In this document: in pieces, positions 27,301 through 56,307 of the stretch
Position numbering within the stretch: position 1 is the first letter of the stretch
Layout: each line of letters starts with the position of its first letter
Assembly: GCA_973895155.1 (NCBI GenBank)
Contig: OZ316893.1
Location: 10,359,660-10,423,659, forward strand
Reading direction: 5' to 3'
Length of the DNA: 64,000 nt
DNA from: Marsupella aquatica
Taxonomy: Eukaryota > Plantae > Marchantiophyta
Notes under the pieces: model-generated
What the model was told of the DNA's origin: nothing
Databases searched by the model: none
Seen by the model: the letters and a program-made list of their open reading frames with translations, nothing else
Position numbers and translations under genes: made by a program

Positions 27301-27615
27301 CTAATTGGGGGTTTAATTGGGGTGCAATTTAATTCTTTAACTGAGTTTTTATCTAGGGTTTAGAGAGGTCATTTAGTCAAGAGAGACTATCAATTTTGAT
27401 TGCACACTATGTACCTTGAAACCCGGGCATGACACGGCATAACTATATCTTATATACAAAAATGAAATATCGAGGGCAAAAGTACAAAAAATGGAGAACA
27501 TCTCCATGCATAGTGCTAGCTATGCTAAAGGCTGGGCATATCAAATGGACATAATGCCCTCCAACTATCCACCTCGCTAGCCTGGTACTAGATCTATACA
27601 TGTCTACCTAGTCCA

Positions 27616-32904: not shown

Positions 32905-33013
32905 CACATATGTGTATTCCCCATTTTTGAAGTAATATAAGAATATTGTAGTTTTTTTAGGAACCCATGGGCTAACTCAAATGTATATATCTGTTTTGTG
33001 CGTTGTATGATAG

Positions 33014-36000
33014 AATGCATATGTTGAGCCGGATGTTGGGGTGTTACCACGAGCTATGCGCCAACACCTTGTGCAGGCCATGGAAGATTGGCGACATGCC
33101 TCTCTACCACCAGATGGCGATCCGGATGTTCCAGAGCAGGAACCAGATGCCTCCCAATCAAGAGTTGATGAAGATAGGGCCATGGATGACTTGATGCACC
33201 AATTCTATGACATAGAGGATGGTGATCATGACATGGCTGATGGGGAGAACATTGAGGTCCCACTTCCACATCAAGAAGGTTCAAGGAGTTCAGCCTCCAA
33301 ACAGTGGGAGGAAGCACGTCAACATGCGCAAACTCGGATATTTGATGGATCACGCTTGTCTCGTCTTTCAGCAATAATGTTGTTGTTGAACTTGCAGCAA
33401 AGACATGGAGCAAGCAACCTACTTCTTGATGATCTCTTTCGGACATTGCATGATTGTATCTTGCCAGAAGGAAACAACTTGCCAGACTCTTGGAAAGAGG
33501 CAAAGAAGGTGTTGAAGTCCATAGGTCTGCAGTACGAAGTCATACATGCTTGCGTGAATGATTGCGTTCTGTTTAGAGGCACTTATAAAGATGCAACGTC
33601 ATGTCCTACATGTGAGAAGCCTAGGTATCGTGAGGACATGTTGACGGGAAAAGTTCCTCAGAAGGTCATGAGGTACTTTCCTCTTATACCTCGTTTGCGC
33701 CACCAATATAGATGTGCTGAGTTGGCTGAGTATATGGTTTGGCATTCCCAAAATCGCTCAGATATGAGTTCACAACCACCCACCATGCGCATGATGGTTG
33801 ACTCCCCTACAAACAAGTTTGTGGAGGAGAGATGGGGTGAGTTCCGAACTGACCCACGTCATGTTCGCCTAGGATTGGCAGCGGATGGCATCAGCCCATT
33901 TGCACTAGCAGGTAAGGCCCAACCATATTCACTATGGCCAGTGGTCCTTACTAATTACAACATCCCTCCATGGATGTCCATGAAGAAGGGTCATTTGCTC
34001 CTTTCCATGATTATCCCTGGTCCTAAGCAAGTGAAAAAAATTGATGTGTACTTGCAACCATTGATTGAGGAGCTACAAAAGCTTTGGAGTGGTGTGGATT
34101 GCTATGATGGTCGAGTGCAAACGGGGGGCTTACGTCGAGAATTTAAGTTGAAGGCCATTCTTATGTGGACCATACATGATCTTCCAGGTATGAATCTTTG
34201 TTAAATTATCCCTTCCCATAGCTAGGCAACCGTACCTAGCATACTTTGTTATGTATTGAGTTAGCTAGAAGCACATATATCTTTTAATAAACTTATTTAC
34301 TTATGCATGGGATATATATTTATATGCAGGGTTTGGATATATTTCTGGCCTGACCACATCAGGATATCGAGCTTGCCCAACTTGTGGACCTGATTTGGAA
34401 GGAATAGCGCGGCCAAAGTCAAAGACCTTGAGGAAGATAGTGTATATTGGTCACACCAAGTACCTCCCTCCAGACCATGATTGGAGGAGAGACCCCTTTT
34501 TATATGACACTGAGGATGGCCAACCAGACAGACGACCACAACCTATTCCAAAAGATCCTGCATATTGGAAAGAGGTATGGGAGAGAGTATCTAATCCAGA
34601 TGACCCATTGCAATATGCCTGGTGTGGCATGACTTGTTTGTCTGCATTGTCACAACTGCCTTATTGGGCTGAGATGCCACTTAACCATTTATTTGACCCT
34701 ATGCACATTGAGGGAAATGTTGGGAGGTCCTTGATTCGCCACCTATATGGAGAGAAAGACAACAACTGGAGAGAGAGTTGTGAAGAGATGGGGATGCATG
34801 GCCCTCATGGTTTTTGGCCATCTATGGATCCCGATAATGCCCCCCTTACTATTCATCCTCCTTGGGTTTTGACACGAGGTGAGCGGACCGAGTTTCGCAA
34901 ACGCATAGGGTCTATGCGATTTCCTACAGGGTATGGTGCCAATCTTCGCAAGGCATTTGGTGGACTTGACTCTCCAAAATGGCCAGCTTTCTTGAAGACC
35001 CATGATTATCATCGCTTATTGCAACATGTTATTCCAATTGCTATTATTGGATTGGGTAGTGAGGATCTTCGTGATGCCCTTTGGTCGTTGGGTAAGTTGT
35101 TGAGATGGGTGTGTCAAAAGGAGGTGAACGAGGATGAGGTTGCAGCAATGGAGGTGTTTGGAGTGGAGGTTGTGTGCAAACTTGAAAGGGCCCTTCCTCC
35201 TTCATTTTTTGATGGTCAGGTTCATTTTCTACTACATCTAGTGCGTGAGGTTGGTATTGCAGGCCCTGTACATTGTCGTTGGATGTACTGGGTAGAGCGG
35301 TACATGGGAGTGATGAAGTCCTATGTTTCAAATCGCGCAAGGGTGGAAGGTAGCATTGCAAAGCGTCATCTTGGAGCAGAGAGCATGTTTTATTGTACAA
35401 ACATTATTGCTACACTTGATTCAAATGCTCCAAGCGGGTGGATAGATGAGGCATCAAGAGAAGCAGACTATGAGGATGACCGTTTGACAGGTGCAAAGGG
35501 AGAACGGCTTCTTGACCCTAGTGAGCACACTAAACTCACTGCATTCATGTTGTATAACTCTCCAGAGATTGTTGGGGAGTGGACCACATTTTATGAGGAG
35601 GATAAGCACAATAGTCGACGACCACGCTTATTTCCCAAATTCCACATGTACATGAAGGGGAAGTTGTTAGAAGTGGATGCCTTGGTGGTTGTTGGGGAGA
35701 GTGTATCACACTTCCCAATGGTGACTGATAAGTTGCGCACCTTGGTTCATGGACCTCTACTTACAGTTACAACCAGGACTGCCATGTGGTCCAAGGGGAG
35801 ACACTTTCGTGTGGAACGACTTGATGACAAGAGGGCAGCTACACAAGATTGTGGGGTGATGGGTTGGTTCACCCAGGATTCTGTAAGTAGCAGATCTGAC
35901 ACAAATCCCATCCGTTCTACTATAGCTCACTATGGAAAGATAGAGGAGATCCTTGTTGTAAAATACCATGCGCATACAACATTGGAAGAGGTGGTGCTGA

Positions 36001-36281
36001 AGTGCAAATGGTTTCGGATGAATCTTGTTGGCCACAATCGAACATGTGAAGAGGATGCTTGCGGCTTCACAAGACTGAAGACAGGGGCTGTCATCAGCTC
36101 AAATTGGAGGGCCTCAGATCCTTTTGCATTTCCTCATAATCTTGAGTAGGCATTCTATCTCCCTTATCCAGATGATCCTGAGTGGTCCATTGTAATGCCT
36201 TACATTCCACGATCCCGATCCATAGTCCAAGAACAGCCAAATGTAGTTGTTGTGGAAGATTTGGAAAATGAGAACAACTAG
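33014..36281 (+). pseudogene. CACTA-B TnpD-like transposase (Transposase_21, DUF4218, DUF4216 regions); shares first exon 31601-31831
   Basis: Exons 33014-34187 and 34330-36281. Motifs: IHACVNDC, RHVRLGLAADG, WPVVLTNYNIPPW, HDLPG, DPMHIEGN, KTHDYH, FFDGQVH, RWMYWVER, DPFAFP. One late TAG at 36147. Confidence 0.92.
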
Positions 36282-38459
36282 CTACTTAGGAATTTCATGG
36301 TAAAAGCTAGGTAGCTAGCACTAGCTAGACCTAATTAATGACCACTTCCCTCCATGTATTGACTTTTTCGGCATATATATGTTATCTACATTGTCATTAC
36401 CATTTTTTTGTTGCATGTTACTTTACTTATATATACCACTTAAATCTTTGGGCTCTAGCTGTGGCTATATATTTGTGCTTTTTAATATATATGAAATGAA
36501 AGCTTCCAATTCATTTCAAGTTGACCCTAGTTGAGTTCCCACATACTTCAAATGGATGTGGAGTCAAAAACCTATCGGAAACACAACATGCCTTAATTAG
36601 AAGCTAGGAAGATGATAAAACCCTCAAAAAACCCCGGCTCTACTGAAAACCGATATTTCCGATATTAAAAGAAACGGAACACATATGCCATACTACAGGT
36701 ATCGGGAAACTTTTCCATCTTTATCACATCGGAAATGACGTCCGTTTGTAATGGGTTCGGACACAAGTCGGAACATATTTCCGATTCCAAAAATATCGGA
36801 AATGTTTCATCCCTAAGTTCATCGGAACCAACATGCGATGTTTTATTTATCGGACGCCTCTTGCGTCGCGGTAGTCTCATTGTCCGATGCAGGTAGAATG
36901 GGAAATTCTCCGATAGTTTTTACATGGGAAACTATTTCCGATTCTAATAGTATGGGACAGTATGTGTCCGATGTAGAATTTATGGTAAATCCCCGATGCG
37001 GGGACAATCGGAGAGTACCGATCTTCTCTGTATCGGAAAGTGTTGCCGACCGAAAGAAGAGCATCGGAAAAACCCAAAATATGTACCAGTGAATGAACAT
37101 TGATTACACTGAAAAGATTGAAGCTCTGAAAATATTCCCTCTTCTGTTTGTGGATTTTCAGATGGACCATATTGCTGTCTATATACATCTGGCCAAGTGC
37201 GCAACGCAAGGCTCAACACAAAGGGAAGAGGAAGGAAAGGAGGAGTTGTGACGGTTCGCGCTCGACGGCATTGAGTAAGTAAGTAAACACAGAATGATGG
37301 GCATTTCAAGTATAGATTTTTGTGCGCCTCGAATACCAAGGCCTTCTTTGTTACATGTTCATAGACAAATTGCTCGTGATGACAAGTTGTGGCGCCGAGA
37401 GAAGATGGCAGCTTTGCAAGTTGGTGCTACTGTGAATCGATGCCCTTGCAACTAGTGTGCAGGAATTCGTAATGTTAGTGTCATGAATGTCCAGAAGCAC
37501 TTAGTAAGATATGGTAGGCATCCTTGGCATCGGGTTTGGCGAGGTGAGGAACATGATTCCTCAGATAATGAGTGGAATAGTGAATATATCCCAGGGTACT
37601 GTCATGGAGAACATATTCTGACCGAATCTCCAGATGCCATGGAAGAGGTCAATCCAGTCCTTGATGTTGGCATTGATGTCGACCGATTTTTAGGTGATCC
37701 CTTTTCTACGCCTAGTCCATTGAATGAAGCAGAGGAAGTTCGGACAGATTTTGTTGAAGAGGAACCTGAGAATGACCACTTTGACTTTGATTCGCTGTTT
37801 GACACCGATAACTCTAGTCCACCCACTGCCGAGCGGGGTGCTGAGAGCAGTAGCCCTCGGGGGTCTCACTATATGGAGGACCCCCCATCACCTGCGACGT
37901 TTTCATGCCTAGACCCCCATACTTATTAAGTTGAAATTTTTTTCCTCCCTCTTTCTTTCTTCTAAGAGTCTAAAATCCAAATTGTATTGCCCCTATAATT
38001 TGTGAAGTAAAGTGTCACATATCAATATAAAATGCCTAGAAAGAAAAGATAAGTCTATGTCAGTACCTTGTGAAGTCGTATGTCAGACATGGCACGCCCT
38101 GCAACAGTTCTTGCACCTTTGTCGACCTTAAACTTTGATCATTTCAATGCATCATTTATATTGTGTACCTAAAAGGTCATCCCAATATAAACCTTACGTG
38201 CATAAGTGGGATGGCCTTTAAGGTCACAACATAAATAATCCATTCCACCCATTGATCACCAATCCCATGCTCCATCCATACTCCATTTAAAACTTATGTT
38301 GAGAGATGTAACATGTGACGGAGGGGAATTGAACCCCTAATTGAGAAAGGATCTCAAGTTGCCAATCCGTCACCCCCTATCCTATCCCACTACACCCACT
38401 AATATTAACAAAATAAAACATATATACAGACTCTCAAAAACTAAACAGTAACATGATAT

Positions 38460-41400
38460 TTATACCATTGTTTGAAGATACTGATCCAAAGCACGTCTAT
38501 CTATTGGATCCAACACATAGATACGATCCATAACCCCTTCTTTCATGGTTAAACTAACACTAGCAATGACCATTTCAATATCCATCCATTTCAAATCAGT
38601 GGTATCATATCTGAATTCACTTTTGCTCTTACCAATAGGACTATACCAATTTAACAACAGTTCACAAATGTTACCTGATTGCCCTGCAAGTGGAGTTGGC
38701 CTATCCATCAAATCAATTGGTGACCGACAATTGCCCCACCTACTGCCATACTTCTGTCTCATTTGGACAATCCGACCCAACCAAAAATATTTCTTACCTG
38801 CTGAGATTGCCTCCACCACAACCTTATTCTTTCCTCCCTTTCTTTTTCCAGATCTAGTACTTGGAGCAGGACTATCATCAGACTCAAATGCAATTGCACA
38901 ATCAGTGCCAACATCAACAAAACATGAGTTAGGATTGACTTCTTGCACTTTTCTCTTGCCAGTACTATAGTATAGCACTTGTTTCACCCTTGTCAGCCTA
39001 TCTTTTGACAAATGCGGATTTCCTACCAACTGGCTTACCAGAGTGGATTTGTAAATCACCTTGCCTTCATAAGTAACAGTAGGCACTACCTTGGTACGAT
39101 TCTGTACATTAGTTACATCATGGACAACTGATCCAAACACATGCCAAACTTCATGACCTAATGTCTCAAGCTCATCTGAGGGGTCTACATCAAACTGTAT
39201 ATCATCTCTGTGTACATCATCTGAATGCATCTCAGGAACAACAATGGGATCTGGTTCTGTTAACCATGCATCTATTCTATTCAGATCATCCTCAGGATCT
39301 TCCAATTCATGAAAATCTCCAGTTGGGCGAGGACCTATGTCTGGTGGTTGGTGCTCTACTTGCTCCTCAGAATCATTGCAAACAATTGCTTCCTTCAGAA
39401 CCACCTCTAGTGGCCAGGTCTCACTTTCCACAACCCAAGGACATGTCCACCATCTCTTTCTAGCTGCTGGTAAGGAACTTCGTGGAGACATCTGCAATTG
39501 ATGCATAAGATCCTTAGCAGCAACAAAACCTTCTTTAAGGGCTGCAACCACTAATTCATTAGTCTCAATGAGAGAATAGTCAAGTAGATTTGGTGCTTCC
39601 TCCCCTTCCCCTATAGGATGAATCTTCCCCCATACATGATCTTGTTTCTTATGTGAACGACCTATCTTCAAGCCTTCTGGTCCATATTCTAGGGCAGCAA
39701 GCCGGTTCAGTCCAACAGCACTATCCAACAGAGAGCCAAAATCATAATTCCGCTCATGGCCACTCATGCCTCCTACCTTGCTGAAGAAAATCTCACAACA
39801 ATCTGAACCTAGCAAGTGGAAGGGAACACCTAGATGTGGGAACTTATCTCGAAAGGCACAAATTAACAGCACAATGAAATGACATGACATGTTAACATCA
39901 TGAAAAGCCTGAATAGACATCATGTCTTTCTCAGTGTGTGCTGCAAAGTTCCCACCCACTGAATGGTCACCAAACCTCAACCACAATCTCCACAAACGTA
40001 GAAAGAATGAAACCTTGGATGCTAACACAATACGGGACCTCAAATCATGAACTGGAGAAAAGAAAATATCTAAGTAATCTGCACAAATCTCCAAGTACAA
40101 CTGAGTTCCTAAACTTCGTTCATGTTGTACATCTCTCCTCTCATACATATCTTTCAGACATTGCTGCACTCTTCTTGCTGCTATTCGTTGTGGACCTGCC
40201 CAATTCTGCCGGTCAGTCCTATTCACATCATCCCAAGCCATGCCATGTTCATGAATTGGATAATGATTGTAGACATTAGCTACATAAGATAAAGATGCAT
40301 GTTGATCTCCTAGCACCAGTAAAGAAGACACTCTGTCTAAGGGGTTTATCATCTTTTTCCCATTATGAGGTTGGTCTTGGTCACCAAAGCCATACAAATC
40401 TCCATTTGGTAGAATTGAAACAGAGTATGTCCACCCTTCCCACCCAACTCCATACCTTGGGTATGATCCATTCTGCCCTCTGTAATCTTCCAGCATCAGC
40501 TTTCGGCGACGTGCATCACCATCACTAGCATGTCCAAGCAAAGGGCCTACCATAGCTCTACAATATTCATCCCAAAAAGCCTTTAACTGGACCCAATGCT
40601 CTCGTACCCAAGAAGCTGTGAACTTATTACAAGTTGGAAGTGCACACACAGCCAATTTAGGTAAGGACTCATGCAGAGGATTCACAATCACAACTCGGGC
40701 ATACATGCACTTGGGGCATTGTTCAAATGTACTTACAATTTTATCATACCCCTCATCACCTTCACCAACTAGAATTTCCAAACCATAGGAGCATACATGC
40801 TGCTCTGAAGGTCCACAGAAACCAATGAGAGTATCATACTTTGCCTCCCACCTGAAACACAGACATGCAATTTTTCAATATCACAGCAATTCCAGCCAAG
40901 TGCTACTTGTAAAGTCATTAAAAAAACAATTGGAAAAATGTCCAGTTCCAATTACCTAGGGCGTTCTTTGATCCTTGTTTCATCCTCAGCAAAGATAACA
41001 GGCACATCCCCCTCAATGCCCAATGAGTGCTTTGCAGCAGACAACACTCTAGCAATCTCCTGAAAGGTTTCCTTCCGTAACCCGGTTCGAAAAGGTGTGA
41101 GTTTTGCTCTATCACGTTTTAGGGTCACAAGGCTAGGGGCTATCAAGTTTCGTGCAAAACAATGAGCAACTTGACGGCCCCCAAATTGGAACATAGCCTG
41201 AGCAATAGCTCGAGTCCTATTACTGTAACGATTACCTTTTGGCTTCCTGCCTAAATTGCGAGCTACATCCTTCAAGAAATCCCACAAACCCTCCTTACCA
41301 CCAAATGCACCATTCCTGTGTCCATTCAAAATACTCCTAAGAAACAATCTCAAATCCTTCCTGTCTGCTGCAACTCCTAACAACTCCTCTAGTTTTCGTT

Positions 41401-43036
41401 TCCTGGTGCTCAAGGCACATACTTTCTGAGCCTGCAAAGCTAACAACCAACGCTCTTTTTGTCGCACAGAGTTCAGGTTGTGCACTTGATCTCTTAACTC
41501 TGTGTTGGTCAAATAATCCAAACGTATACCACCAGCAGTGGTTCGGCTCCCTCTGTGGACTACTGCTTCCGCTTCCCTGTGCACCCGTCCACGAAAATCA
41601 TCTTCTAGTGTTATAGAATCACATTCACTACAAGTTAGATTTTCAAATCCTCCTCCATTCTGTGATAACCTCAAGCAATCCTTGTGTCTAAAACAGCCTG
41701 CTATACTCACAACACTCTCTCTACTTGGATGGAAAACATCCAAGCAACAACTTGGCTCACAATGCCATGTAATTCCCCCAGACTGATCATCTAAAATGCC
41801 AGAAATATCATAAGATATACCCTTCCATAACAGTCGAGGCACACCTCTCTCTACCCATAATCCCCAGCAAAGCAAACTCAGACCAAGATCAACAGATTCA
41901 CACACACCTGAACCTGAACCTGAACTGCTGCCTGTCCGGGACCCATCATCTTTAAAGAACTTCAAAATCCCGCTCTGACCAGGATGTAGGTCCCTAGAAT
42001 CAGTCCTCTTTGGCCTGCCCCTCTTCCCAGACCTCAAGGCAAGCATTTTTGTGTCATGCCTAGTCTCCAATGCATCCAAGTGATCTCGACTCACTAAGTG
42101 TGTCCTCAAATTGGGCTCCAAGGTAAGCTTCTTGGGGCACAAGGCAGTGTGAAGCATTCCACAGACAGTACAGCTAACCTTAAACAGGAAAGACCTGTTT
42201 ACATACTCAGGAGTACTGGGATCAGGAACAATAGAGAATAGTTTGTCATCATCCCCAAGCTCAGCATTCAATCGCTGAACTATCTCAACACCTACTTTGA
42301 TGGCGTCTGCATGATCATATTCTGGCTTCTCAGAGATGTCTGCTACCTGAACCAAAGTAGAAGGAATGCCCCTTCTCCGACAATAGTTATCCTTATGCTT
42401 ATTGAAGACCAAGTGTTTGGTCTTAAAATTACTAAAGCAATTGGAGATGGATTTAGGGTTTTGAGAGTTGTCTGCATTGCCATAAGTTTCCCTACATTCA
42501 AGACACTCCAGATGCCCTCGAACATCTGTCCCCTCATCCCAGGTACGAATTCTCCAATTGTGATCACCATAACCCTTCTTATGTACCCATTTCTCTAACC
42601 TCATCCACTCATCTTTCCATAGCTTTGATGGGACATCTCCCATCAATTGTGACTCAAAAGAAGCCCTTACAGGGGAGGGTGCTAGTGCTGTTGGCCTCAG
42701 TTGTGGTGTCTCAGTATTTGGACCCAATGATGCAGGAGTGCAAGGATGACAGGGTACTGGTGGGATCCTCCCACCATCTCCAAGTTCTTGTTGTACAACA
42801 ATAACTCTTCCATCCAGCTCAGACAGATCAATTAATTTCTCATGTACAAGTTTCACTCGACCAGGAAGTCTCTCATCCCAAAAATCGAAGTCAAAGTCTA
42901 GAGTAGAGGCAATACGAGCCCTAAAATCATGTAGGGTGTGTCCTTCTTTGAATGACAAAACACAGATTGGTAAATCAGCCTTGTCATCCCCAACTTTGCG
43001 TATTAATTTAACAGAGTTGGGTTTAGGGGCTGCCAT
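38460..43036 (-). CDS. Intact ~1490-aa P-element/THAP9-like DDE transposase with N-terminal C2H2-like zinc fingers
   Basis: Exons 43036-40956 and 40851-38460 total 4473 nt with no stops. Catalytic-type motifs: FAEDET, HASDGD, DQPHNGKK (DxxH), DRQN, GSDCCEIFFSK. Two CxxC...HxxxxxH fingers lie N-terminal. Confidence 0.75.
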
Positions 43037-43535
43037 TGCAATACAAATCTAGAACATGCATAGCACCATTGCTTTTGGAGTCGATAACAGAAAGACCTGC
43101 ACAAATACATTTGAAATACACACAAGGGAAACACATTAGGATCTTCAAGAGATGCAATGACAACATACACATTCTCATGTCAGTAATGTACATAATGTCA
43201 GCATACATTTAACAATAGAAGTGCTAATAGGCCAAAACACTTTATAATGCAATCCATCATACATGCAAATGTATTCAGTGAAAATCATGATATACCGTTA
43301 AAGTTGGATAAAATATCTTTAGAAAAAATATCCTTTTTGCCTGGTTTTCTAACAATTCCCGAGGTTTAGTGGTTTTGCTCATCAAAATGCAGCACTATTA
43401 GTGATCGTAATTATGACAAAATGTCAACACTAATAAAATTGGGTACTACCACCCATGATGCAGCTTAAGTATATGCCTTGCTCATACCCCACTAAGACGT
43501 TGAAACCTAAGTAATAGGTTTATTCATTATTCAGA

Positions 43536-44285
43536 TCACTGGAGCCATGAAATGTGGTCCCTGATTGGAGTCTTCAGGTGTGGATCAATAGGATGACGGG
43601 GGCAATAAAACATCTGTCGCTGTTGTCCATGTGCTTCATGTTCCCAGATGTCCCTATCATGAGCAAACCCTTTGCTTTTGATCATCTGGAGACAATCTGT
43701 ATGCCAGGCATTTGGACATCGTAAACATTGTACCATGTTCTTGACCATCTGACCCTCAAGACTCTGATAACATGTCACACATGTATGCAGTGGGCAGGAC
43801 TTTGCAGCAGCTACCAAACACCCAAAGCAATAAAATCGTACACAAAAATGATCAGAGCATTTTCGCACAATTGTAGGTGACGGTCCCACAGTGCGGCACC
43901 CATAACACATGGCCTGGTCCTGGTTACAATTTGGGCAAAACCATGGCTTCCCTCCATGATGGAGGGGAAGGACTACACAGGGGCAAGAGTCATTAGGGGC
44001 TTCATCTCCAACCACATAATGAAATTGCCTGTGACATGGCCCATCACAAATTACCAACTTCCCACCATGCTCACAAATTGCACAAACATGAGGGCTGGTT
44101 TGTAGAATCTCTTGCTCAGAGAACAAGGGAATACACAATACCTCTTCTAAAGAGGACTGTGTTGCTTTCTTTATGTTTGAAGTCCTTGTCGGCATGGTTA
44201 CAACTGAAATCATCACAAAGCACATCACATATGAGAGGGACATGTATGATACTGGGCAATCCATAGAACTTGGAGAAATCCACAT
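43536..44285 (-). CDS. EDM2-like composite PHD-finger cassette carried by the P-like element (start likely ATG 44195 or an upstream exon)
   Basis: CAICEHGGKLVICDGPCHRQFH...FCPNC...CYGC...CPLHTCVTC...CLRCPNAWHTDCL...YCPRHPIDPHLKTPIRDH is collinear with the EDM2 PHD region as I recall it. Confidence 0.8.
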   Translation of the reverse strand: MWISPSSMDCPVSYMSLSYVMCFVMISVVTMPTRTSNIKKATQSSLEEVLCIPLFSEQEILQTSPHVCAICEHGGKLVICDGPCHRQFHYVVGDEAPNDSCPCVVLPLHHGGKPWFCPNCNQDQAMCYGCRTVGPSPTIVRKCSDHFCVRFYCFGCLVAAAKSCPLHTCVTCYQSLEGQMVKNMVQCLRCPNAWHTDCLQMIKSKGFAHDRDIWEHEAHGQQRQMFYCPRHPIDPHLKTPIRDHISWLQ

Positions 44286-44537
44286 TTGAAGTAGTTACAA
44301 ACCTGCTCCAATGATCTGCAAACCTCCCTCCCAGATGAAGTCAACTACACAGTGCAGCCTGGACACCCACCAACCAAGACATACATAAATACAATGCCAG
44401 CTTGCGAAACTTTGCCACATAATGGGAATGAAAATTATTCTCATATATCATGGATGGTACAATTGCAGCCTTGCAAACAAAGGCCTAGTCATCCCGGACC
44501 TCAAGTCATGAACAACGCATCCATGTACTATCAGGGA

Positions 44538-44936
44538 CTACAATGTCAAGCATCCATGGGCTGTAACCTTAGCTTGACCTGGAATACTATCTGGGGCTAC
44601 AATATCAAGCTCAGTTATATGTGGAATACTATCTAGGACTACAATGTCAAGCGTGTCCGGGATGACAATCTTGCGTAAAAGACACTCATTTTGAGGCCAA
44701 ATGGTTGGCCTTATACAAGAGCACCTCCAGCGACGTGTGACAACTTTGCCATGCTTTCCCATGTATGTCCTAGTAACAAGTCTTCCACGCATTTTCAAGC
44801 AGAAGCAATGGAACCATTCAAAATTGCCATCACCAACCCTGCACTTCACACAAGATTCGCACCAGCAGCATTCATCTGGATGCTGCAAAAGGAGCTTCTC
44901 ATAATTCGCTTCTAATGTAATGCCCAATTTAGCCAT
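44538..44936 (-). CDS. Cys-rich ORF of unknown function, possibly an upstream exon of the PHD gene
   Basis: ATG-initiated with CCWCESCVKC...HCFC...H...CSC. It is on the same strand as, and directly upstream of, the PHD ORF. Confidence 0.35.
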   Translation of the reverse strand: MAKLGITLEANYEKLLLQHPDECCWCESCVKCRVGDGNFEWFHCFCLKMRGRLVTRTYMGKHGKVVTRRWRCSCIRPTIWPQNECLLRKIVIPDTLDIVVLDSIPHITELDIVAPDSIPGQAKVTAHGCLTL

Positions 44937-46168
44937 GGCACTATTTTTTTTACTCGGTGAATGGCCAGGCGATCAGACGTGCAATGACAGGCAACTTACA
45001 ATTCACTAGGTACAGTATGTGCTCTAGCAAACTGCTTCACCGCAAGTGCTGGTGCTCACAGCTGCAAGCACTGATTTCTTTTGCAACCTGTGAACAAAAT
45101 TAAAACCACCAGTTCAATAAGTTTCAAATGCTGCAAGCGCTGAAGACAACCAATTGGCCATGATGCATGTTACGACAGCAATAAACAAATAATTGGGCTC
45201 AACAGACCTGAATAGCTAACCTGAATAGCTAACCTGAATAGGATCATGGACCTCTCATAGCTATGGTGTCCTTCCTACATTACACATTGGTCTAATTTAT
45301 GCAGTGTTTCACTATGATTGTGTTCCATAGAAGAGCATCCAATCTGGCTGACCATTGGAGGAAGCTTGGGCTGGGTCATAGCTACAGCAATTACTCCTCT
45401 GCAAATGCTATTTGTTGGTAACACATGTTTACTCATCAGTAGACGAATGAAGCATCTGAGGTTTTTGAAACTTGTGCTCTGATGAGGGAGTGAGTGACGT
45501 GGGAGCCATGATAATCATAGATTCAGTGCAAAAGCAAAATCCATGCTCAAAGGCAAACGTGGCAAAATTGGGTATATGTTCTTCACTGCCAAAGCTTCTG
45601 TTTGCGCAGCAAAATCCACGAAAGGAATGAAGGAACAAGGGGGAACTCCAGACTCAAGAGCCTCAATTGCTGCATTGTGGAAACACGTTGCGTGGGAGAA
45701 GTCGTTGGCTTGTAGAAGAAGTAAAAGTGTGCTGGTGAAGGATTTTGTGGTCGGGGTGCATCATAAGGTTGACACAGAGAAGAGAGAGGTGTGGAGAGGC
45801 GAGGAGAGGAGCAGAAAAGTAGGAAAGGCCGTGTAAGGCAGTCGATAAAAAGCGAGTTAGGTTTGGAGTGTCCTCTCGACAGCAAAGGATTTCGTGTGTG
45901 CTGAATTTGTTGCTGGTCCAAATTCCAGGAGCCAGTCAGTAACGGAATAGTGGAATTTTGGGAATAGCAGATGACCTAGGAAGTCAAAAATGGATCTCAG
46001 TAGTGGCTCCAAACCATAGCTGCAAGGGCATGGCGAGCTCTAGAGGACAAAAAACTGAAAGAGCTTATTGCCATTCACGGAGCTCAAAACTGGAATTTTA
46101 CTTCTGATAAGCTAAACGGGCAGATCAGGTACCACATCGTCTATGACCGCTACTAGATAAGGTGTGCC

Positions 46169-46775
46169 ATGCGTGGCCTGTCTAGACCAACATTGGTGCA
46201 TGACTTGGCAATTACCCGTGACTATGTCGTCTTCATGGACTGTCTGCTGCGTCTCGATCCAAAGCGGATGGTCATGAAGGATCAATTTGCAATCGCTCAC
46301 AGCACAAGCACACCTTTCCGTTTAGGTCTACTGCCAAAATATGCCAAGGATGAAACGGAGATGTGCTGGTCCAACTTTCCTTCAGCCATCAATTTCCACG
46401 TCGCAAACGGATGGCAGGAAGGAGATGAAATCGTTTTAGTTACGTGGCGAATGCCAACAACGGATCTACTTCGGATCACTGACGTTTGCCCGTGATTGCA
46501 CGAGTATCGGATCAACTGGAAGACTGGAGAGACTACGGACAGAAGGCTGGGGGAGTTCGATACTGAATATCCCGTGATTAACAAGAATTATATTGGCAAG
46601 AAGACCCGATACATCTACACAGCTACTCGTTCAGCTGGAGTTGACAGCCAATCTAGCAGATATGGAATCATTAAATTTGATTTGAGTAACGGACCTGAGT
46701 TGGGTAAAGAAACACTGCAGGTCGGAGGGAATGTGGGAGGTGTCTTCTGGCATGGGCTTCAAACAATAGCAAGCA
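46169..46775 (+). pseudogene. Intronless fragment of a carotenoid cleavage dioxygenase (CCD1-like) captured in the P-like element
   Basis: Reads PTLVHDLAITRDYVVFMD, RLGLLPKYAKDE, FHVANGWQEGDEIVL, EYRINWKTG, EYPVINKNYIGKKTRYIY, GIIKFDL, LQVGGNVGGVF. It has an internal TGA at 46493 and lacks both ends. Confidence 0.85.
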
Positions 46776-47109
46776 ACCAAGCACGATCGTCAAAGCAGGA
46801 AGCGCCCACCTCCCGGTTGAGCAACGTACATAGCAATGCTGGCAGTAGCCTTGGCACTCCTGTTTGAGCAAGCATTGAGAGAGAGCAGCAACGTAGCACT
46901 CTCGCTCCCATTTCAGCAAGCTAGCATGCAGCTCCCATTTCAGCAAGGTAGCAGCTTCCGTTTCAGCAAGCAGCAATGCCACACTCCCGGCACCCACCCC
47001 CTGTTTGAGCAACAACACAACAATCACATAAACTTTCCTATCATTTCAGCAAGAAGGAACGTAGCACACTCCCTCAACCACAGACAGTAGCGCACCTATA
47101 CACTCCAAC

Positions 47110-47610
47110 CTTGCAGCGCAGCCAACACTCTTGCCCGATCATTCACTCCAAGCAGCGCGCGCAGCCGAGAGTGCAACACTCTCACTTGATCCTTCACTCC
47201 CGGGTTCACTCCAAGTAGCAGCGCATCCGAGAAGTCTTGCTCTCCCCTTCACTCTAAGCAGCAGCGCAGTTGAGAACTCTCGCTCTCCCCTTCACTCTAA
47301 GCAGCAACGCAGCCGAGAACGACCTTGATCCTTCACTCCAAGTAGCAGCGCGCAGCCGAGAACACTTGGTTGATCCTTCACGTCAAGCAGCAGCGGCAGT
47401 AGCGCAGCCAAGAGTGCAACACTCTCGCTCTCCCCTTCACTCCAAGGCGCAGCCGATAACTCTTCAAATCCCTTCACTTCAAGCAGCAGCGACAGTAGCG
47501 CAGCCAAGAGTGCAACACTCGTTCTCGATCTCCCCTTCACTCCAAGGCGTAGCTGACAACTCTCGCTCAATCCTTCGCGAGCAGCAGTGCAGCCGTAGCA
47601 GCAGCACACT
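47110..47610. repeat. Degenerate tandem repeats (GCAGCC(A/G)AGAGTGCAACACTC / CCCCTTCACTC blocks)
   Basis: The blocks recur at ~47160, 47240, 47285, 47405 and 47500. Confidence 0.7.
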
Positions 47611-50600
47611 TGTTTAGACCCCCGTTTACACCATTTTCTGCAAGGTACAAACAAAAGAGTCTCTCGTCCCAAACAACGGGTGGGGCCAAAGGGATAGTGG
47701 AGGGAAACCACACGGGAGGAGACTGACAAGGGCCAATTGAGGGAAATGAGACATGTTAACGGAACAATTCAAACTTAATCCCGGTCAAACCCTAAACATG
47801 AGTCCCCCAAAACCAGACCCACTTAAATCATTCTCAAATTCTTGCCATGTTAAACATGACTTAGGAAAATATATTGGGAATGTTATGTGTGCCATGTGTA
47901 CCAATGATATAGTGCCACGTGTAATTTACATAGTCCGATTCAAGGACCCCCTAACTTCCTTGTATGCCTTCCATCTACATAGTCAAAAATATTAATATCC
48001 CTATTGTTCTTACAAGTTGTCCAACATATAAAGTCGACCCTATTGTTCTTACACAAATCTTCTTAAGTCTTCCGAGAAACCCAATTAACGGACCCTATAC
48101 TTAGTCGCACGTGATATGAGATTTTCGCGAAGTGAGACCCCCCTGCAGTAGCCAAGACATGGATGATCCCATGGATCTTGCATTTACAGAGGCATGCACT
48201 CCATTGTACGAGGGATCAACAACTTCACAATTAGCTTTTGTGTTGTCTTTTTTGAACATTTGCCACAACAATGGCTTTTCCAATTCGGGAGTGGACAAAC
48301 TCTTGAGTGCGATGGGGGAACATCTTTTACCACCTAACAATTTGCTACCTCAGAACATCTACGCATGTAAGAAGCTGATCAAAAAGGTTGGATTGGATTA
48401 CATTAAGATTCATGCTTGTAAGAATGGTTGTATCCTGTTTAGAGGAGATCAATATAAAGATTTACAATAGTGTTTAGAGTGTAAGGAGCCCAGGTATAAG
48501 CAAGTGGGAAAGTCCAAGCAAGCTGTGAAAGTCCTGCAACACTTTCCTCTTATTCCATGTCTTCAACGGATGTATAAATGCCAACCAAGCTATTTCAAAG
48601 TTGATGACATGGCACAAGGAGAACGGCAGTACTGATGGCATGGTCAGACACGTTGCAGATTCAAAGGCATGGAAGTGGGTGGATAATGAGATTGACAAGG
48701 ACTTTGCTGCAGAACCACGCAACATCCGCCTTGGTTTAGCACTTGATGGTGTCAATCCATTTGGAAACAACAACCTGAAGCATTCCACATGGCCATTAGT
48801 CTTGTTGAACTACAATCTTCCCCTTGGCTATCTACAAAGAAGTTCTTTGTAATGCTGTCATTGTTAATTCTAGGGCCTGAGTCCGTGACAGACATAAATA
48901 TAGATGTATACATGGCTCCTCTACTTGAAGAGCTGTTGGAGTTGTGGAAAGGAGTGAACTGCTTTGATGTGGTAGACCGGCCAGGCAAAGATAAAGTCTT
49001 TACTTTACGAGCTGTGCTTTTATGGACTGTCAATGACTATCCAGCATATGGGCTAATCTCTAGACAGGTGACCAAAGGATATAGAGGGTGTGTTGTATGT
49101 GGTCCTGATGTGGAGGTCCGAAGGTCAAATGCTCTGAGCAAACAGGTTTTCCTAGGTCATCGACGATACTTAAGATTGGATCATACGTACAGGAACATAA
49201 ATTATGCAAAGTATTTCAATAGGAGATGTGAAGTACGCCCGGCACCACAACCAATGACATGCACAGAGAGGATGAAGTATGCAACTGACGTAGAAACTTA
49301 CTTGAAGAAACAAGGGGCTAAATTTGGAAGCAAGAATTGTCCTTCAAAAGTGCATGGAGTGAAGCGAAAGCCAACTCTGACTCAACTACCATACTGGGAG
49401 GTACAATTCTTGGAAGGGTCCATGATGTTTTGATTAATTGATAGCAATTGAAACAATCATGCCACTAAATTGCTTTTCAGTCCTGGCGTTCAGACATACT
49501 TCTAAGGGTGCTAATGTTTGATTTTCTGCAATGCAGAAGCTACTCATCAACCACACCATTGATCCAATGCACACTGAGAAGAATATTTCTGCAAATATAG
49601 TGCACACAATCAGCGGCAGAAAATATACTACAATTGTTCGGCAGGATATGTGTGCTGAAGGCCTTCACAAGAAGCTATGGCTTACTCCACACCCAAAGAA
49701 GGCAGATGCAATGTTAAAGCCCAATTAAAGCTCCTTATGTTTTGAGCCCTGGTGAGTTGATGTCATTCCATGACACGTTGAGGACATTGAAGGTTCCAAC
49801 CGATTTTGGCAGTTCCTTTGCCAAGTGTGTGAGTGCCAATAATAAGTTGGTTGGGTTAAAATCACATGATTACCATCAATTGATGCAGCAGATTCTCCCT
49901 TTAGCCTTAAGAAACCTTCTGGCCACGGGTCCTCGACTAGCTATCCAATGGGTATGCCGGCTATGGCGCAAGATTTGTTCAAAGGGTTGGGACCCATCTC
50001 AATTTGAATCATTGAAGCAGGATGTTGCATTCACTCGATGTGCTTTGGAAATGCACATTCCACCCTCGTTCTTTGATGTAATGACCCATTTAATGGTTCA
50101 TATTGTTGAAGAGCTTGACATTTGCGGCCCTGTAGCTCAAAGGTGGATGTATCCGGTTGAGAGATATCTTAAAGTGTTGAAGGGCTACGTTCGGAACAAG
50201 GCTTGTCCTGAAGCATCCATGGCAGAAGGTTACGCTTTCACTACTACACTATTGGCCCCTTTTGCGAACCCATACACATCGCAATCAACAAAGGCCCGAT
50301 AAACAGAATTCCGGCACTTGCGAACTAACATGCATCGCTACACCATCCCAAATTGCGAAGTTAAAACCTTCGCACGTGGACCATCGCAACGCCATCGCAA
50401 CACCATCACAATTTCCTAACCAAATTCCCTCGCAACTTGTCGAACACTTCCGAGTTCAAAATCGTTGCAAACGCTTCGCATTATGCCGCACGGTCCTTTG
50501 TTACCGATGTTGGTTTTTGTGAAGCTGGAAGGTTCGCTACGTGTTTGTGATGGGAATGAGTTTGATATTTGCGATGTCGTGGGGTTGGCAACTAGCGAGC

Positions 50601-51075: not shown

Positions 51076-53131
51076 CTAAAATGGACTCTTCCGACCCCGC
51101 TTTGTCAGCTTCTTTGCCGGCTTCTTGCCCTTATCCTTCTATGGATGTACAGCCTGGTGCTGACGGGTGCGCGGTGCCTTTCGGCGCTGCTGCTCCTCCT
51201 GCTCCTCCTCCTCCTCCTCCTGCCCATCCTCCTCCTCGTCACCTCCCTCCTGCTCCCCCTCATCATCAACCTGTCTTGATGATGCACGACTACTACCACT
51301 ACCGCGATGGGATGAACCTACCTCCCGGCTACTGCCCCTCTCCCTAGAATCGCTGGTAAGAGGAGTAGCCCCCTCATCCTCATCATCACTACTACTTGCG
51401 TCAGCACCCAACCCCTCAGGCTCATCCGAATCCTGCATCCGTACACTTAATCAGTTTCTACAAATTAAAAAGGGTCATCCACAATGTTGGCATCACAATT
51501 AATTAAACCTTGAACACCTAGATACTTACAGTAGCCAACTCGGCATCCACCATCTGAAAGAGGTACTTTCTCCCATGCTCCATCCCTATCTCAATATGTT
51601 TCTTGGATATCTTCCTCTTATATTTCCGGTACTGCCATGCACCATAAAACCAAAAAGTAAACCCATAGGCTAAACCAAAATTCACAATGCGAGAGGCCTT
51701 AGGCCTAGAAAAGTTAAACTACTTTGAAAACAACTCAAATTCACATTTGCAAAGCTAATGCGTTCACAAAATATGAAGCCCTAATTTTTGCGAAGGCATT
51801 GCGATGGCTTTTGCGATGCGCGTACCTTCGCAATAGCATCAGAAAATCCAAAAAGAAAAAAGTGCATAATAGAGTTTGCGAGGCTCTTGCGAACGAATAC
51901 GCATCGCAATGGGATTGCAAACTGTGATCCCGAGAGGTTTTTAAAAATGCGCAAATTTCTAAGTGTCAGTCGTGACCTAAAACAATGCACAAGCAAGCAC
52001 ATGAGAGCATGGACATTCATGACATTCCATTCACTTGCATTACCTCAACTGAGAAAGTAAGGAGGAAAGAGCTTAGGGAGGAGAGGAGACACTCACAAAG
52101 TGGGCCTTGAGACCGGGGAGCCCGCCTTGACCCAGCTTGTGGACTGGATTGGGGGTGGCTTTCACTCGCTTGGCTGCATCCATGAAACATTTGGGTGGTC
52201 TTCCTTCTTTGTCGACCACCTTTTGCACATCAGCTACCTTCTGCTCGAGTCCCTTCGGGTCATGGTCAAGGGGGAGCTTCACGGTCTCCTTTGCTTTCAG
52301 GGATCGAGCTAGTGTATCCTTCCATTGTTCCAACTCGCGAGCTGCTTTGATTTGCACCTCAATCTTGTAAAATGCATTCCAGATGTCCTCAGTGAATTGG
52401 AGGGGCCTGCGCAAATTCCTGTACGATCTCAAGTCTCTCAGGTGGGCTCTAATCTTCATCCTATCATGGTATCTCATTTGAGACATGGAATTAGAAATCT
52501 TGTCTGCCAGCCATTGCTCATCTATGTCAGCTCCATTACGAAATCCATCCTTGATCTGATTCATCACTCTCTTTCGCTCTGCCTTCTCAACCTTTCCCCA
52601 TTGCATGCCTCGTGAGAAATTGCTTGTGATGATTTGTTTGATGGTGCTCTTAGCCCCTGCATAGGCTAGCTCAGTTGGAGTCCCAGTTGTCTCCAAGGCA
52701 ATGAATGGAAGCTTTTTCCTTGCATCCTCTTTCTGACGTTGCTCATCTCGTTGTTTTCGAATTGCATCCCTCTCCTCTCTTCTCTTCTGTTTTTCTATGG
52801 CTTGAGGAGAGGCAACTCCCGACTTAGCCCTCTCCTCCCTCTTCCTTCTTTTCTCTCTAGCCTTCTCCTCAGCTGTGACCCTCTCTTCCTCGTCTCTAGT
52901 AGCTTGCCCTGCCACAATTCCTGTTTGCAAAACCTAGCCTAAAATGGCACTCAAGGAGGCAAGCCCTGCTGGAGTATTCAAATTTACTTCACCCAACTGT
53001 GCAGCACTGAGATGTTGGGCTACTAAGTCGCTCCATGCATTCTGTTGCTTCTCCTGATTTGCCCCATTGCCACTACCACCAGCACCATGTCCTCCACTCC
53101 CACCGTGCTCTCCACTCCCACCGGTAGCCAT
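51076..53131 (-). pseudogene. CACTA-C accessory (TnpA-position) gene; in-frame TAG stops at 52936-52934 and 51141-51139
   Basis: Exons 53131-52097, 51631-51530 (102 nt, the same length as in CACTA-B) and 51432-51076. HKLGQGGLPGLKAHF is homologous to HRMGQGGSQRLKADF. Confidence 0.72.
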
Positions 53132-53898
53132 AGCTCAATCCCTCTCAGGTCTCTCTCGATCTTCTCCCCGCGGCCCCTTCTCCTCTCGCTCTCCCGATCA
53201 AACAAGGAATGAGCTTGATGCGAGCTCCCGCCGACACTTACGCATTTCAAAAAAACCTCTTTGCGATCACATTCGCATCACAAACTGCCACCCTATTACC
53301 TTCGCAAACAGTCTTGCAACTTGCGATACTTTTGTGAAGAATATACCCTCGCTAATCCATCGCAACCCGTAGAAATGCCCAAAAATTGTTCTCGGCCTCT
53401 GTATTTGCGAAGATGTTGCAAACCCGGGAGGTTCGCAAAATGCATCTCTAATTTGTGAAGCAATTTGCGAGGCAGGTGATCTCGGTTTAGGGTGGGAAAC
53501 TATCCCAGGTGTTTAAACGGCTTTACAAGGGTATGGCCTATTTAAACCCTTTTAACTCAACATGGATTTGTGAATGGCCAATTAGTTTGAAGAAGAGGAT
53601 TTTAGGTTGTAGTTGGGCTTTGTGTTTTTGTTTTTGAATCTTAATTGGGTTCTAATTTAACAAAGGGTTTGAGTTTTAATTTGGGGTTTGGATTTAGAAA
53701 GGGTTTAGTTTAGGGAGGGTTGTGTTTCAATTGAAGGGGTTAATTTGGGTTTAGGTTTTAATGTAAGGGTTGGGTTTGACTTTTCACTGATTTCATATTT
53801 TTTGCTCTATACATATTTCAGTTTAGGGACATGGTTTTAATAGAGGGCTTTAAGTTAGGGTCTAAGGTAGAGGTTTGGGTAAGGTTGTAATTGAGAAG

Positions 53899-54256
53899 TT
53901 TGGGTTAGGGTTTAGGGTAGGGGCTTGATTTTGGTTTAAGTTTAGGGGTTTGGGTTAGGTTTAGGGTAGGGGCTTGATTTTGGTTTAAGTTTAGGGGTTT
54001 GGGTTAGGTTTAGGGTAGGGGCTTGATTTTGGTTTAAGTTTAGGGGTTTGGGTTAGGTTTAGGGTAGGGGCTTGATTTTGGTTTAAGTTTAGGGGTTTGG
54101 GTTTTTTTTAGGGTAGGGGCTTGATTTTGGTTTAAGTTTAGGGGTTTGGGTTAGGTTTAGGGTAGGGGCTTGATTTTGGTTTAAGTTTAGGGGTTTGGGT
54201 TAGGTTTAGGGTAGGGGCTTGATTTTGGTTTAAGTTTAGGGGTTTGGGTTAGGTTT
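53899..54256. repeat. 49-bp tandem array (~7 copies) containing TTTAGGG, within a ~1.1-kb G/T-rich telomere-like tract
   Basis: GGGCTTGATT recurs at 53921, 53970, 54019, 54068, 54117, 54166 and 54215. Confidence 0.93.
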
Positions 54257-55150
54257 TAAGTATAGGGGTTGGGTTCCATTTTAATTCTAAGTTGTGTTTC
54301 ATTTTTAATTGTGGGGTTTGGGTTAGGATTTTTGGGTAAGGGTTTGATACGTAATGAGGGAATATGGATAGGTAACTTAGGATGGAGTTTGAGTTAGGGT
54401 TTAAGGTAGGGGTTTGAGTAAGGTTTTAGCTGAGGGGTTTGGGTTAGGTATTGAATATAGGGGATCGATGGGTTCAATTATAATTCAAGCTTGTGTTTAA
54501 TTTTTAATTTAGGGATTTGGGTTAGGGTTTAGGGTAAAGGCTTCATAGGTAATGAGGGAGTTTGGGTTATGGTTTCAGATGGGGTTTGAGTTAGGTTTTA
54601 GCTGAGGGATTTGGGTTAGGGTTTGAATGTAGCAGTTGGGTTTTTAGCGTAGGGGTTTTGGTTAGCTAGGGCTTTGGGTAAGGGTTTTATATGTTCATGT
54701 TTAGGGTAGGTTTTTTTTCTAATTGAGGGTATGCTTTCTTTATTTCATTAACATGAAGGGGTAGAACACTCTAGGAGTTATAGGGCACTTCCCCATCGTT
54801 TTGAGAGTTTTGGCTAATGCATATGCATTGCGAGAGCTCGGGCATCTGAAAGGTAAAGCTTGTTTTCCTGGCATTTTTTATTTGTACTGTAACTTGAGGG
54901 TCTATCATCCCTTTCTATAGTTTACCATAAGTCATTGCTTAATTCATTGTATATTTGCAGATTTCTCCCTCCTACTTCCAGATTGGGTTCATCAAGTTTG
55001 GACCAAAAGACCTATAGGCATTGCTGAGCCCGGGTCTCATAAAGGTATTTTTTCCTTTCATTTCAGTTTAATATGTCTACTTAGGGATTACAAATGATCG
55101 TTTTAGCTATTTGTTTACTAACTCGCTATTCCAAATCTTCCACTTGCCAG

Positions 55151-56307
55151 ATGTCTTCATCCTCTACAACTTCCCCCACATCAGACTCCTCCTCTGATGA
55201 GGACATAGATCCTCCTCCTCAGCCTGAAACAGCCGCTCGTCGACCTAGTGGTCCACCACGCCAACTTTGCAGTTGTAAAAAATGTGTGGGGATGGTTGTC
55301 CAGAAGTCATATGTATGTGCAGACCATATTTCTCGATATGGACAACATCGAGGTCTTACACCCGGAGCCTCTTCATCCCATACGGTGAGTTGTAAACTTA
55401 CTATGGTTTATTTTTTATTCAATAAATATTGCTAGCATGATAAGTTGGGGAAGTTTACAATCACTTTGTTGGATTTGTTCCCTATAGGTATCTAATAGGC
55501 CTACACCCATGGCACCAGCACCCTATGTTCCCTCACAAGGAGTTCTAGATGCTATAGGCTCGGCCCTTTCACAAGCTTTCCGTTTAGTTGCAGCAGAGGG
55601 AAGTGGTGTTGGGACAGTTCAGGGTGATGGTATTGTTACACGAGGGAAAAAACGGTCTAAAAGGCAACCCAGAGGGGAAGTTGATCAGTACACCTGTAGG
55701 GTTGATGGTAGGTGGGGACCTTGTACATTCACAGGGAAATGTGAACATTCCTATCATAAAGGATTGGAATCCTGATTGCCTTGGTTTGCCATGTGATATA
55801 ACCTATGGTGAGGAAATAGAGGTTTGGGGAAGACATTGGATTGTCAAAAGTTCTACACTAGGGGAGAGACATGGGTATGGAATTTTTTCTTGCCAGGACA
55901 TCATTGTGGATGATATGGGTGGAAAAGGGCGCTCTCAAGATGGACCAACGTTGTTCCCCTATGGTGGACCCATTTACAAGCGAAGACATTGGAACATGCT
56001 CCTTGTACAACACCCTGAGTGGAAGACTTATGCATTGGACATGGATACTTTTGATGGTTGCACTAGGAAGTATAGTGAACAACGTATAATTGATGGTGAT
56101 CCCATCCGTAGTGGAAATATAGCCGGTTTCATTAACAGTACTGTGGGGACCCGGCCTAAGCGTAGGAAAAACTATGAATGGGTTTTTGTTGATGGTCCCC
56201 CTCCAGCACCATATGGGCAGAGATATCATCATGACCATTGTCTAGTTGTAGCTACTAGGACCATCAAGGCCGGAGAGGAGTTGTTTACACATTATGAGTG
56301 GGATTAG
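55151..56307 (+). pseudogene. CACTA-C zinc-finger + SET-domain protein (short isoform); frameshift near 55740, SET domain itself uninterrupted
   Basis: Exon 55151-55384 (CSCKKC...H..YG.H) joins exon 55488-56307. SET motifs: GYGIFS, YGG, NIAGFINS, VATRTIKAGEELFTHY. Confidence 0.82.

Follow-up and report, generated by a model that had tools for sequence, protein, structure and literature searches.

A 219-aa reading frame that resembles the multi-PHD cassette of EDM2 lies next to a transposase gene in the DNA analysed here, a stretch of 64,000 nucleotides from the liverwort Marsupella aquatica (the window). This raises the question of whether a chromatin gene can belong to a transposon as one of its own genes, or is host DNA that the element carries along. 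In plants, to our knowledge, only a small number of chromatin factors encoded by transposons have been described. The best reading of the evidence assembled below is that the frame belongs to a P-superfamily element, on which it has long resided as an accessory chromatin gene.

The transposon and its second gene

The first-pass annotation had described an uninterrupted open reading frame over 43536-44936. This has to be corrected, since translation of the minus-strand frame of 44936-43536 meets in-frame stops at codons 133, 163 and 214, so that the stretch is not a single frame. The real gene runs from 44195 to 43536 (43536..44195, minus strand) and encodes a stand-alone zinc-finger (PHD) cassette, intron-free and putatively EDM2-derived. 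The stop-to-stop open stretch around it is 44294-43536 (252 aa), within which the ATG at 44195 gives a protein of 219 aa; at the stop frequency of the element, 219 open codons would occur by chance with a probability of about 1e-5. The protein has 37 residues before its first Cys and its C-terminal end is YCPRHPIDPHLKTPIRDHISWLQ, the EDM2 tail YCxxHxIDxxLxTPxRDH being present and then followed by the stop codon. Just past this stop there is an AATAAA (43519..43524, minus strand), the only one between 44300 and 43000, which may act as a poly(A) signal. As had been noted, the gene is found just upstream of the transposase, on the same strand, with a spacer of about 500 nt between them.

The upstream part of the formerly annotated stretch corresponds, in the ORF list, to a separate Cys-rich ORF of 132 aa (44538..44936, minus strand), a possible 5' exon of the PHD gene, for which no Pfam match and no homologue among 56 candidates could be found. 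Joining a donor at 44578 to an acceptor at 44203 gives an open candidate of 341 aa, one of seven such joins. Splice sites were scored by a crude count, which rated the real transposase donor low; with this scoring, no well-scoring join puts the whole PHD cassette in frame with the transposase. The contig depth over the 132-aa ORF (44538-44936) is like that of the transposase, and copies differ by deletions just downstream of it (44490-44550). In addition, two distant relatives of the PHD gene show a good splice-donor-like site 28-41 nt ahead of the start codon (L001:501 and L002:713); the start codon of the PHD gene analysed here is preceded instead, at a distance of 8 nt, by an acceptor-like site.

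The whole transposon comprises 10,290 bp (37856..48145, minus strand). It is flanked by two identical copies of an 8-bp target-site duplication, TSD (37848..37855 and 48146..48153), and bounded by 14-bp terminal inverted repeats, TIRs, in which 12 of 14 positions match (37856..37869, plus strand, paired with 48132..48145, minus strand, the latter starting 5'-CA). A second TSD and TIR pair (56912, 60383) passes the same filter, but lies inside open coding frames and was taken as chance; because of this, the limits of the element also rest on loose contig ends and on the frame at the empty site. In fact, run X1 has 40 contigs with a loose end at 37856. When the element and one TSD copy are removed, a CACTA Tnp2 frame (left part 37456..37855, plus strand, resuming at 48154) is read with 0 stops in 239 codons; this interrupted frame is 37% like the Tnp2 at 33014. 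Since the Tnp2 frame is open across the reconstructed empty site, the P element lies inside another transposable element (TE), in agreement with what had been proposed. A subterminal array of repeats of about 43 nt (families D8-D11 and D15) occupies 47108..47592.

The transposase is encoded by two coding exons on the minus strand, the first of them (40956..43036) comprising the N-terminal block, two C2H2-like fingers and the first catalytic Asp in AEDET, and the second (38460..40851) the second Asp, the D-x-x-H motif and the Glu. The spliced protein has about 1490 aa, and its homologues continue straight across the intron position. Residues D111/D113, D160-x-x-H163 and E354 are invariant in 15 aligned rows, the DDE triad being assigned by this conservation. 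Among 54 matches, the homologues that carry names are mostly from Riccia, plus one Adiantum and one Daphnia protein, a composition from which a liverwort-like host was judged likely. Sequence searches of the transposase against PDB and Pfam gave no significant P-type match, and the P-type identity therefore rests on fold, as seen in a Riccia homologue (P0165; 46% identity over exon 2 of the window; model pLDDT 82.5) and not in the window's own protein. The model of this homologue has only two matches at E<=0.001, the Drosophila P transposase 6p5a (E 1.2e-7) and 6pe2. According to PMC3698922, the DDE, the D-x-x-H and a TSD of 7-8 bp with TIRs are criteria for the P superfamily. By the modelled fold of the homologue, the DDE with D-x-x-H, the 8-bp TSD and the TIRs, the stretch 37856-48145 is assigned to the P superfamily, as the annotation, which spoke of a P-like transposon, had anticipated. 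A THAP domain was not found, exon 1 being without any Pfam family at E<=5. The transposase N-terminus shows a conserved block of about 85 aa that recurs in the Riccia homologues; it also has two C2H2-like fingers and another cluster of Cys residues, and Pfam has no match for any of these parts.

Other features of the window deserve mention. A SET-like ORF is placed just upstream of Tnp2 in two CACTA/Tnp2-type elements (55588-56304 and 31942-32727, both plus strand; the former with Pfam SET at E 9e-6 and 47% like the latter over 135 aa). The genome has in them another example of DNA transposons that bear genes of chromatin type. Both SET-bearing elements have in common an ORF on the opposite strand (29418-30617 and 52076-52933, minus strand; 34% over 253 aa) without a significant Pfam match, and a G/T-rich tandem array with a 49-nt period and telomere-like units (53645-54690) separates, in a CACTA element, the opposite-strand ORF from the SET-like one. 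Two long ORFs at 58394-61821 (minus strand), one of them with DUF7869 (E 4e-51), are probably another DNA-transposon gene and adjoin a Tnp2 frame ending abruptly near 57787. At 28 kb from the P element, NB-ARC-like and LRR frames (7049-9715, plus strand) look by eye like an NLR-type gene.

The PHD cassette and its descent

Pfam identified PHDvar_NSD in the PHD protein (E 1e-7, above the cut-off), while PHD-1st_NSD, PHD and PHD_NSD were weaker and all below the cut-off. The best PDB sequence match was NSD2 648-801 (E 1.7e-12). The predicted structure (pLDDT 70.5) found its best fold match in 9gbf, the PHDvC5HCH tandem of NSD2 (Z 7.8, rmsd 2.6 over 75 residues), which was the only chain at Z>=5 of the 48,161 compared, in a comparison that barely probes the residues before 94; Foldseek with the same model returned nothing at E<=0.001. 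The RFD-like N-terminal domain of EDM2 was absent from the protein in the Pfam scan (DNMT1-RFD appeared in 2 of 17 scanned matches, both long host proteins), as was the C-terminal methyltransferase-like domain, since the stop comes right after the tail. That the gene stops without the rest of EDM2, as had been reported, is borne out by this stop, but the feature is less singular than it had seemed, liverwort host paralogues also ending at or after the cassette.

Six relatives of 213-304 aa, with 45-82% identity to the PHD protein, were found among 50 candidates, and the clade to which the protein belongs consists of old, unnamed short proteins, 36-80% identical. In a profile search unlimited in length (522 matches, of which the best 150 were considered), the top five were short proteins and EDM2-like ones came next. 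Nineteen sequences were labelled "short clade" in this analysis. In trees built without fragments and most angiosperm EDM2s, the short clade forms a single branch, both in a quick tree (15 of 70 rows, SH-aLRT 96) and in a careful one (10 of 40 rows, support 100/100); the long-branched P0120, its sister in the 70-row tree, was dropped from the 40-row tree. Short-clade proteins start mostly some 30-45 residues ahead of the first Cys and terminate, when complete, at HISW or close to it; the zinc-ligand columns are nearly invariant (13 rows). The G-L/M-N-P-P-F motif, here labelled methyltransferase-like, is missing in every short-clade row. Three other short proteins of EDM2-like type (P0039, P0045 and P0073; 320-386 aa) start with M-A-R-x-K close to the cassette, and P0039 groups with seed-plant-type EDM2 rows in the tree, possibly a parallel truncation.

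The first-pass annotation held that the gene reproduces the EDM2 multi-PHD cassette with its tail. The PHDvar_NSD match and the tail with its stop agree with this, but the cassette is not a plain copy. In finger 2, a Cys replaces the His ligand in 16 of the 19 short rows, compared with 5 of 143 others, and the insert of about 20 aa present in finger 2 of EDM2 is missing from the short clade. Moreover, the Asp that 72 of 143 other rows have at three residues ahead of the first Cys occurs in none of the 19 short ones (0/19). The tail pattern was recognized in 10 of the 19 short rows (the others being cut or diverged), in 91 of 137 other matches, in 55 of the 63 matches bearing the methyltransferase-like motif, and in 0 of 6 unnamed rows to which the label "NSD-like" was given here.

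In the phylogeny against host EDM2 and NSD that the annotation had suggested, the best 40-row tree nests the short clade among EDM2-like rows (100/99 against NSD-like), with a long stem (1.64), and the best sister group is that of liverwort EDM2-like paralogues ending near the cassette (85/89, unstarred). An AU test disfavours descent with the full-length Marchantia-type EDM2 (p 0.037), but a clade of the short proteins with the NSD-like rows is not rejected (p 0.36). Because the tail pattern is absent from the NSD-like rows and the search scores point to EDM2, we favour a derivation of the short PHD cassette from the EDM2 family, the AU test leaving an NSD-like placement beside it.

Residence on the element and selection

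The PHD gene is not limited to this copy, which is indicated by contig depth and by the short-clade relatives. Besides this gene, the element holds a captured Myb-repeat fragment (46004..46153, plus strand; Pfam Myb_DNA-binding, E 2.4e-5) and a captured, broken carotenoid-cleavage-dioxygenase (CCD) fragment (46157..46867, plus strand), the decay of which, already remarked upon, is confirmed by a Pfam RPE65 match with an internal stop; it lies on the strand opposite to the PHD gene and varies among copies. The Myb-repeat fragment abuts the CCD fragments in the 5' part of the element (46004-46867) and forms with them a chimeric cargo.

Contig depth, which is no copy number, was summed in four runs with three organism labels. 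In run X1 it amounted to 492-681 for the PHD gene, 460-812 for the transposase and 113-227 for the CCD stretch, and in run X3 to 25,000-28,000, 22,000-40,000 and 759-1,874, respectively. The PHD gene and its spacer have the depth of the transposase in X1 and X3, and in X2 a depth of the same order. The CCD stretch is covered several-fold less, and contigs of X1-X3 skip 575 nt of it; no contig piece among those listed bridges the PHD gene and the transposase. The observed/expected ratio of CpG is 0.23 in the PHD gene (8 of 34.9) and 0.22-0.31 in the transposase, compared with 0.79 in the CCD piece and 0.49-0.94 in four non-element frames, and we infer that such a CpG loss fits a long residence of the PHD gene in a methylated element. 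Both depth and CpG thus match between the PHD gene and the transposase and differ in the CCD piece, and the description of the gene as diverged yet open, unlike the CCD cargo, can be maintained. In fact, the CCD and Myb pieces are fragmentary, decaying and copy-variable, as is Pack-type neutral cargo, and the PHD gene is not.

Over 215 codons, the PHD gene and L001 are identical at fractions of 0.55, 0.64 and 0.34 of codon positions 1, 2 and 3, with a pS of 0.84 (saturated) and a pN of 0.39. From these saturated synonymous sites and this pN, the short form is judged to be under long purifying selection. Within the family, a 1130-nt contig of X1 differs from the element of the window at 2 places. 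Among 40 listed of 683 variants, the PHD gene has 1, a non-synonymous one, whereas 18 fall in the transposase, half of them (9) synonymous and half (9) not; none of 12 listed of 95 indels lies inside a coding frame, an indel count that has no power for the PHD gene alone.

As regards more distant occurrences, none of 216 compared proteins matches both the PHD cassette and the transposase, and the viral and prokaryote collections held no relative of the PHD protein. A metagenome scan gave four loci, two of them short-clade on contigs of 1.5-1.9 kb and two NSD-like SET proteins. No transposase similarity was found around L001 (670 nt downstream) or L002 (65 nt), and the 670 nt of L001 barely exceed the 500-nt spacer between PHD gene and transposase in the window. 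L001 is interrupted by a stop and L002 carries a frameshift, and the CpG ratio of the two is 0.34-0.35. Damage of this kind is frequent in TE copies.

Possible functions and known systems

The function we put forward, tentatively, is that the 219-aa frame, as the second gene of a P-superfamily transposon and with an EDM2-family cassette, works in trans as a chromatin adaptor or decoy which keeps copies expressed or mobile under silencing. The protein would be translated and enter the nucleus, would bind histone tails or tail-reading proteins, and might in this way ease host silencing of element copies; without the N-terminal and methyltransferase-like domains, it would bind, but compete or bridge rather than perform the job of EDM2. 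The short relatives in one clade, their conserved ligands and the matching depth and CpG count for this proposal, as do the damage in L001 and L002, the H3-like spacing seen in most members and the precedent of vanC (PMC6446971). Against it count that no distant relative is tied to a transposase, that no listed contig piece bridges the two genes, that the related NSD1 tandem is reported to barely bind H3 (PMC4838375), that the window copy is without the H3-like spacing considered below, that the Asp before finger 1 is absent, and that the sole listed variant of the PHD gene is non-synonymous; moreover, anti-silencing and targeting are not separated by these data. The annotation had been more specific: the protein could read H3K9me2, or act as a decoy within the ASI1-AIPP1-EDM2 pathway. 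In that form the idea is not supported. The Asp before finger 1, absent in 19 of 19 short rows, is a hallmark of unmethylated-H3K4 readers according to the NSD2 paper (PMC11724302), and related NSD tandems are reported to differ widely in their ligands (PMC11724302, PMC4838375). Because of the finger changes and the varied ligands of NSD tandems, reading of H3K9me2 cannot be assumed.

It is also conceivable, although unlikely, that the PHD protein is a targeting cofactor which binds the transposase and a histone mark and steers insertions to heterochromatin or other TEs, in a partnership like that of the PHD-bearing RAG2 with the RAG1 transposase. The PHD gene and the transposase are head-to-tail on one element, and this copy is inserted in a CACTA Tnp2 frame. 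In addition, the transposase N-terminus has two C2H2-like fingers, and the related tandem of NSD1 is reported to bind a zinc finger (PMC4838375); transposons with RAG1L and a Kelch-PHD RAG2L have been described (PMC4411706). Nevertheless, a single insertion site in a TE-rich window says little, and neither a PHD-transposase fusion among the 216 proteins nor a well-scoring in-frame splice join was found. A complex prediction with PHD residues 20-219 and transposase residues 1-520, run without alignments, scored 0.00 and has no weight either way.

A further proposal starts from the N-terminus, since most short-clade members begin with small-R-x-K-x-x-A-basic-K, which is the spacing of histone H3 residues 1, 2, 4, 7, 8 and 9. 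In H3, positions 7 and 8 are A7 and R8. The residues A1, R2, K4 and K9 are given in PMC11724302. At least 4 of the 6 positions match in 12 of the 16 members with an N-terminus; in a script test, the sole measure of this likeness, applied to kin members after the pattern had been noticed, shuffles averaged 0.74 and none of 5000 reached 12, and the spacing ranked first of 252 spacings of the same letters. No more than 2 of the 6 positions match in the window PHD protein and in its closest relative, several members carry three residues ahead of the motif, and a basic nuclear signal could resemble it. The pattern may also be partly inherited, because the N-termini of liverwort host EDM2 (P0025, P0018) match 4 of 6, without K4. 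It is doubtful that plant P elements carry an old accessory gene in which an H3-tail mimic, lost by the window copy, is joined to a remodelled EDM2 reader cassette, baiting H3K4/H3K9 writers or readers or gating its own finger to blunt silencing; if true, this would represent a novel way of countering silencing and would give access to the P elements of land plants.

It is rather improbable that the short protein represents a family of host genes in liverwort-like plants, from which only this element family captured a copy, carried without serving the element. The distant relatives not being seen on TEs would suit such a family, as would the Myb and CCD cargo of the same element and the sister position of the liverwort host paralogues ending near the cassette (85/89, unstarred). 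However, none of the examined short-clade matches comes from the annotated Marchantia, Riccia or Calypogeia proteomes, which do contain the longer paralogues; both L001 and L002 are damaged and CpG-poor, and the CpG decay of the PHD gene matches that of the transposase, unlike recent cargo. Very improbable is neutral cargo, that is, an old captured EDM2 fragment which is open only because the copies of a young family are recent. Although the copies are young, as the 1130-nt X1 contig with 2 differences illustrates, ligands, start and stop are conserved across proteins 30-65% identical with saturated third positions, and for this reason long selection on the short form is required. Finally, little credit can be given to the specific ASI1-AIPP1-EDM2 decoy, reading H3K9me2 and shifting poly(A) choice, perhaps between the single AATAAA that follows the PHD stop codon and the downstream transposase: EDM2 PHDs are reported to bind H3K9me2 and the EDM2 complex to favour distal poly(A) sites in Arabidopsis (PMC7472560, PMC7529245), but fingers 1 and 2 are changed clade-wide, descriptions of the complex come from Arabidopsis and rice, and it is not plain how a downstream transposase would profit if a complex promoting read-through were blocked.

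For the accessory gene that we favour, comparison with known systems shows likeness and difference in each case. With EDM2 (Arabidopsis; Selaginella XP_002976689; Marchantia Mp2g00350) the PHD protein shares the finger spacing and the C-terminal tail, and it is 31-37% identical over the cassette to EDM2-family host rows (12 rows); unlike EDM2, it is without the RFD-like and methyltransferase-like domains, has the His-to-Cys change in finger 2, neither the insert of about 20 aa nor the Asp before finger 1, and sits on a transposon. The short liverwort paralogues (Marchantia Mp1g03210, Riccia R1sor_003797, Calypogeia) likewise stop with the cassette or soon after it and have the highest host identity to it (33-37%), but they are annotated host genes of 619-768 aa, with a long N-terminal part, which keep the His ligand and the insert. 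The PHD modules of NSD1-3 (PHD1-3, PHDvC5HCH) provide, in NSD2, the best PDB match by sequence and fold; the PHD protein is without SET or PWWP domain, the NSDs are without the EDM2 tail, and ligand specificity is reported to vary even among NSDs (PMC11724302).

A survey of titles and abstract openings gave nothing on an EDM2-type transposon gene or on P-type elements of liverworts; Repbase and supplements may hold the family. Among transposon-borne genes, VANC of the VANDAL/Hiun Mutator elements is likewise an extra gene and is thought to counter silencing; it belongs to another superfamily and is not described as a PHD protein in the text consulted of PMC6446971, and for the gene presented here anti-silencing is a proposal. 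RAG2L is a PHD finger encoded by a cut-and-paste transposon (PMC4411706), but it combines a Kelch propeller with one PHD, whereas here a stand-alone multi-finger EDM2 cassette is carried by a P-type element. Rehavkus also encodes a PHD finger, placed, according to PMC6446971, within the transposase and not in a separate gene as here. The Drosophila P element and THAP9 share the transposase fold (6p5a, E 1.2e-7), the DDE with D-x-x-H and the 8-bp TSD, while the present element measures 10.3 kb, has a 1490-aa transposase without a THAP match and a second gene, and lives in a plant. If a P element has indeed retained a remodelled fragment of a heterochromatin reader of its host, these 219 aa would provide a directly testable means of studying the encounter between transposons and H3K9-based silencing in early-branching land plants, as well as the choice of other TEs as insertion targets by certain elements.
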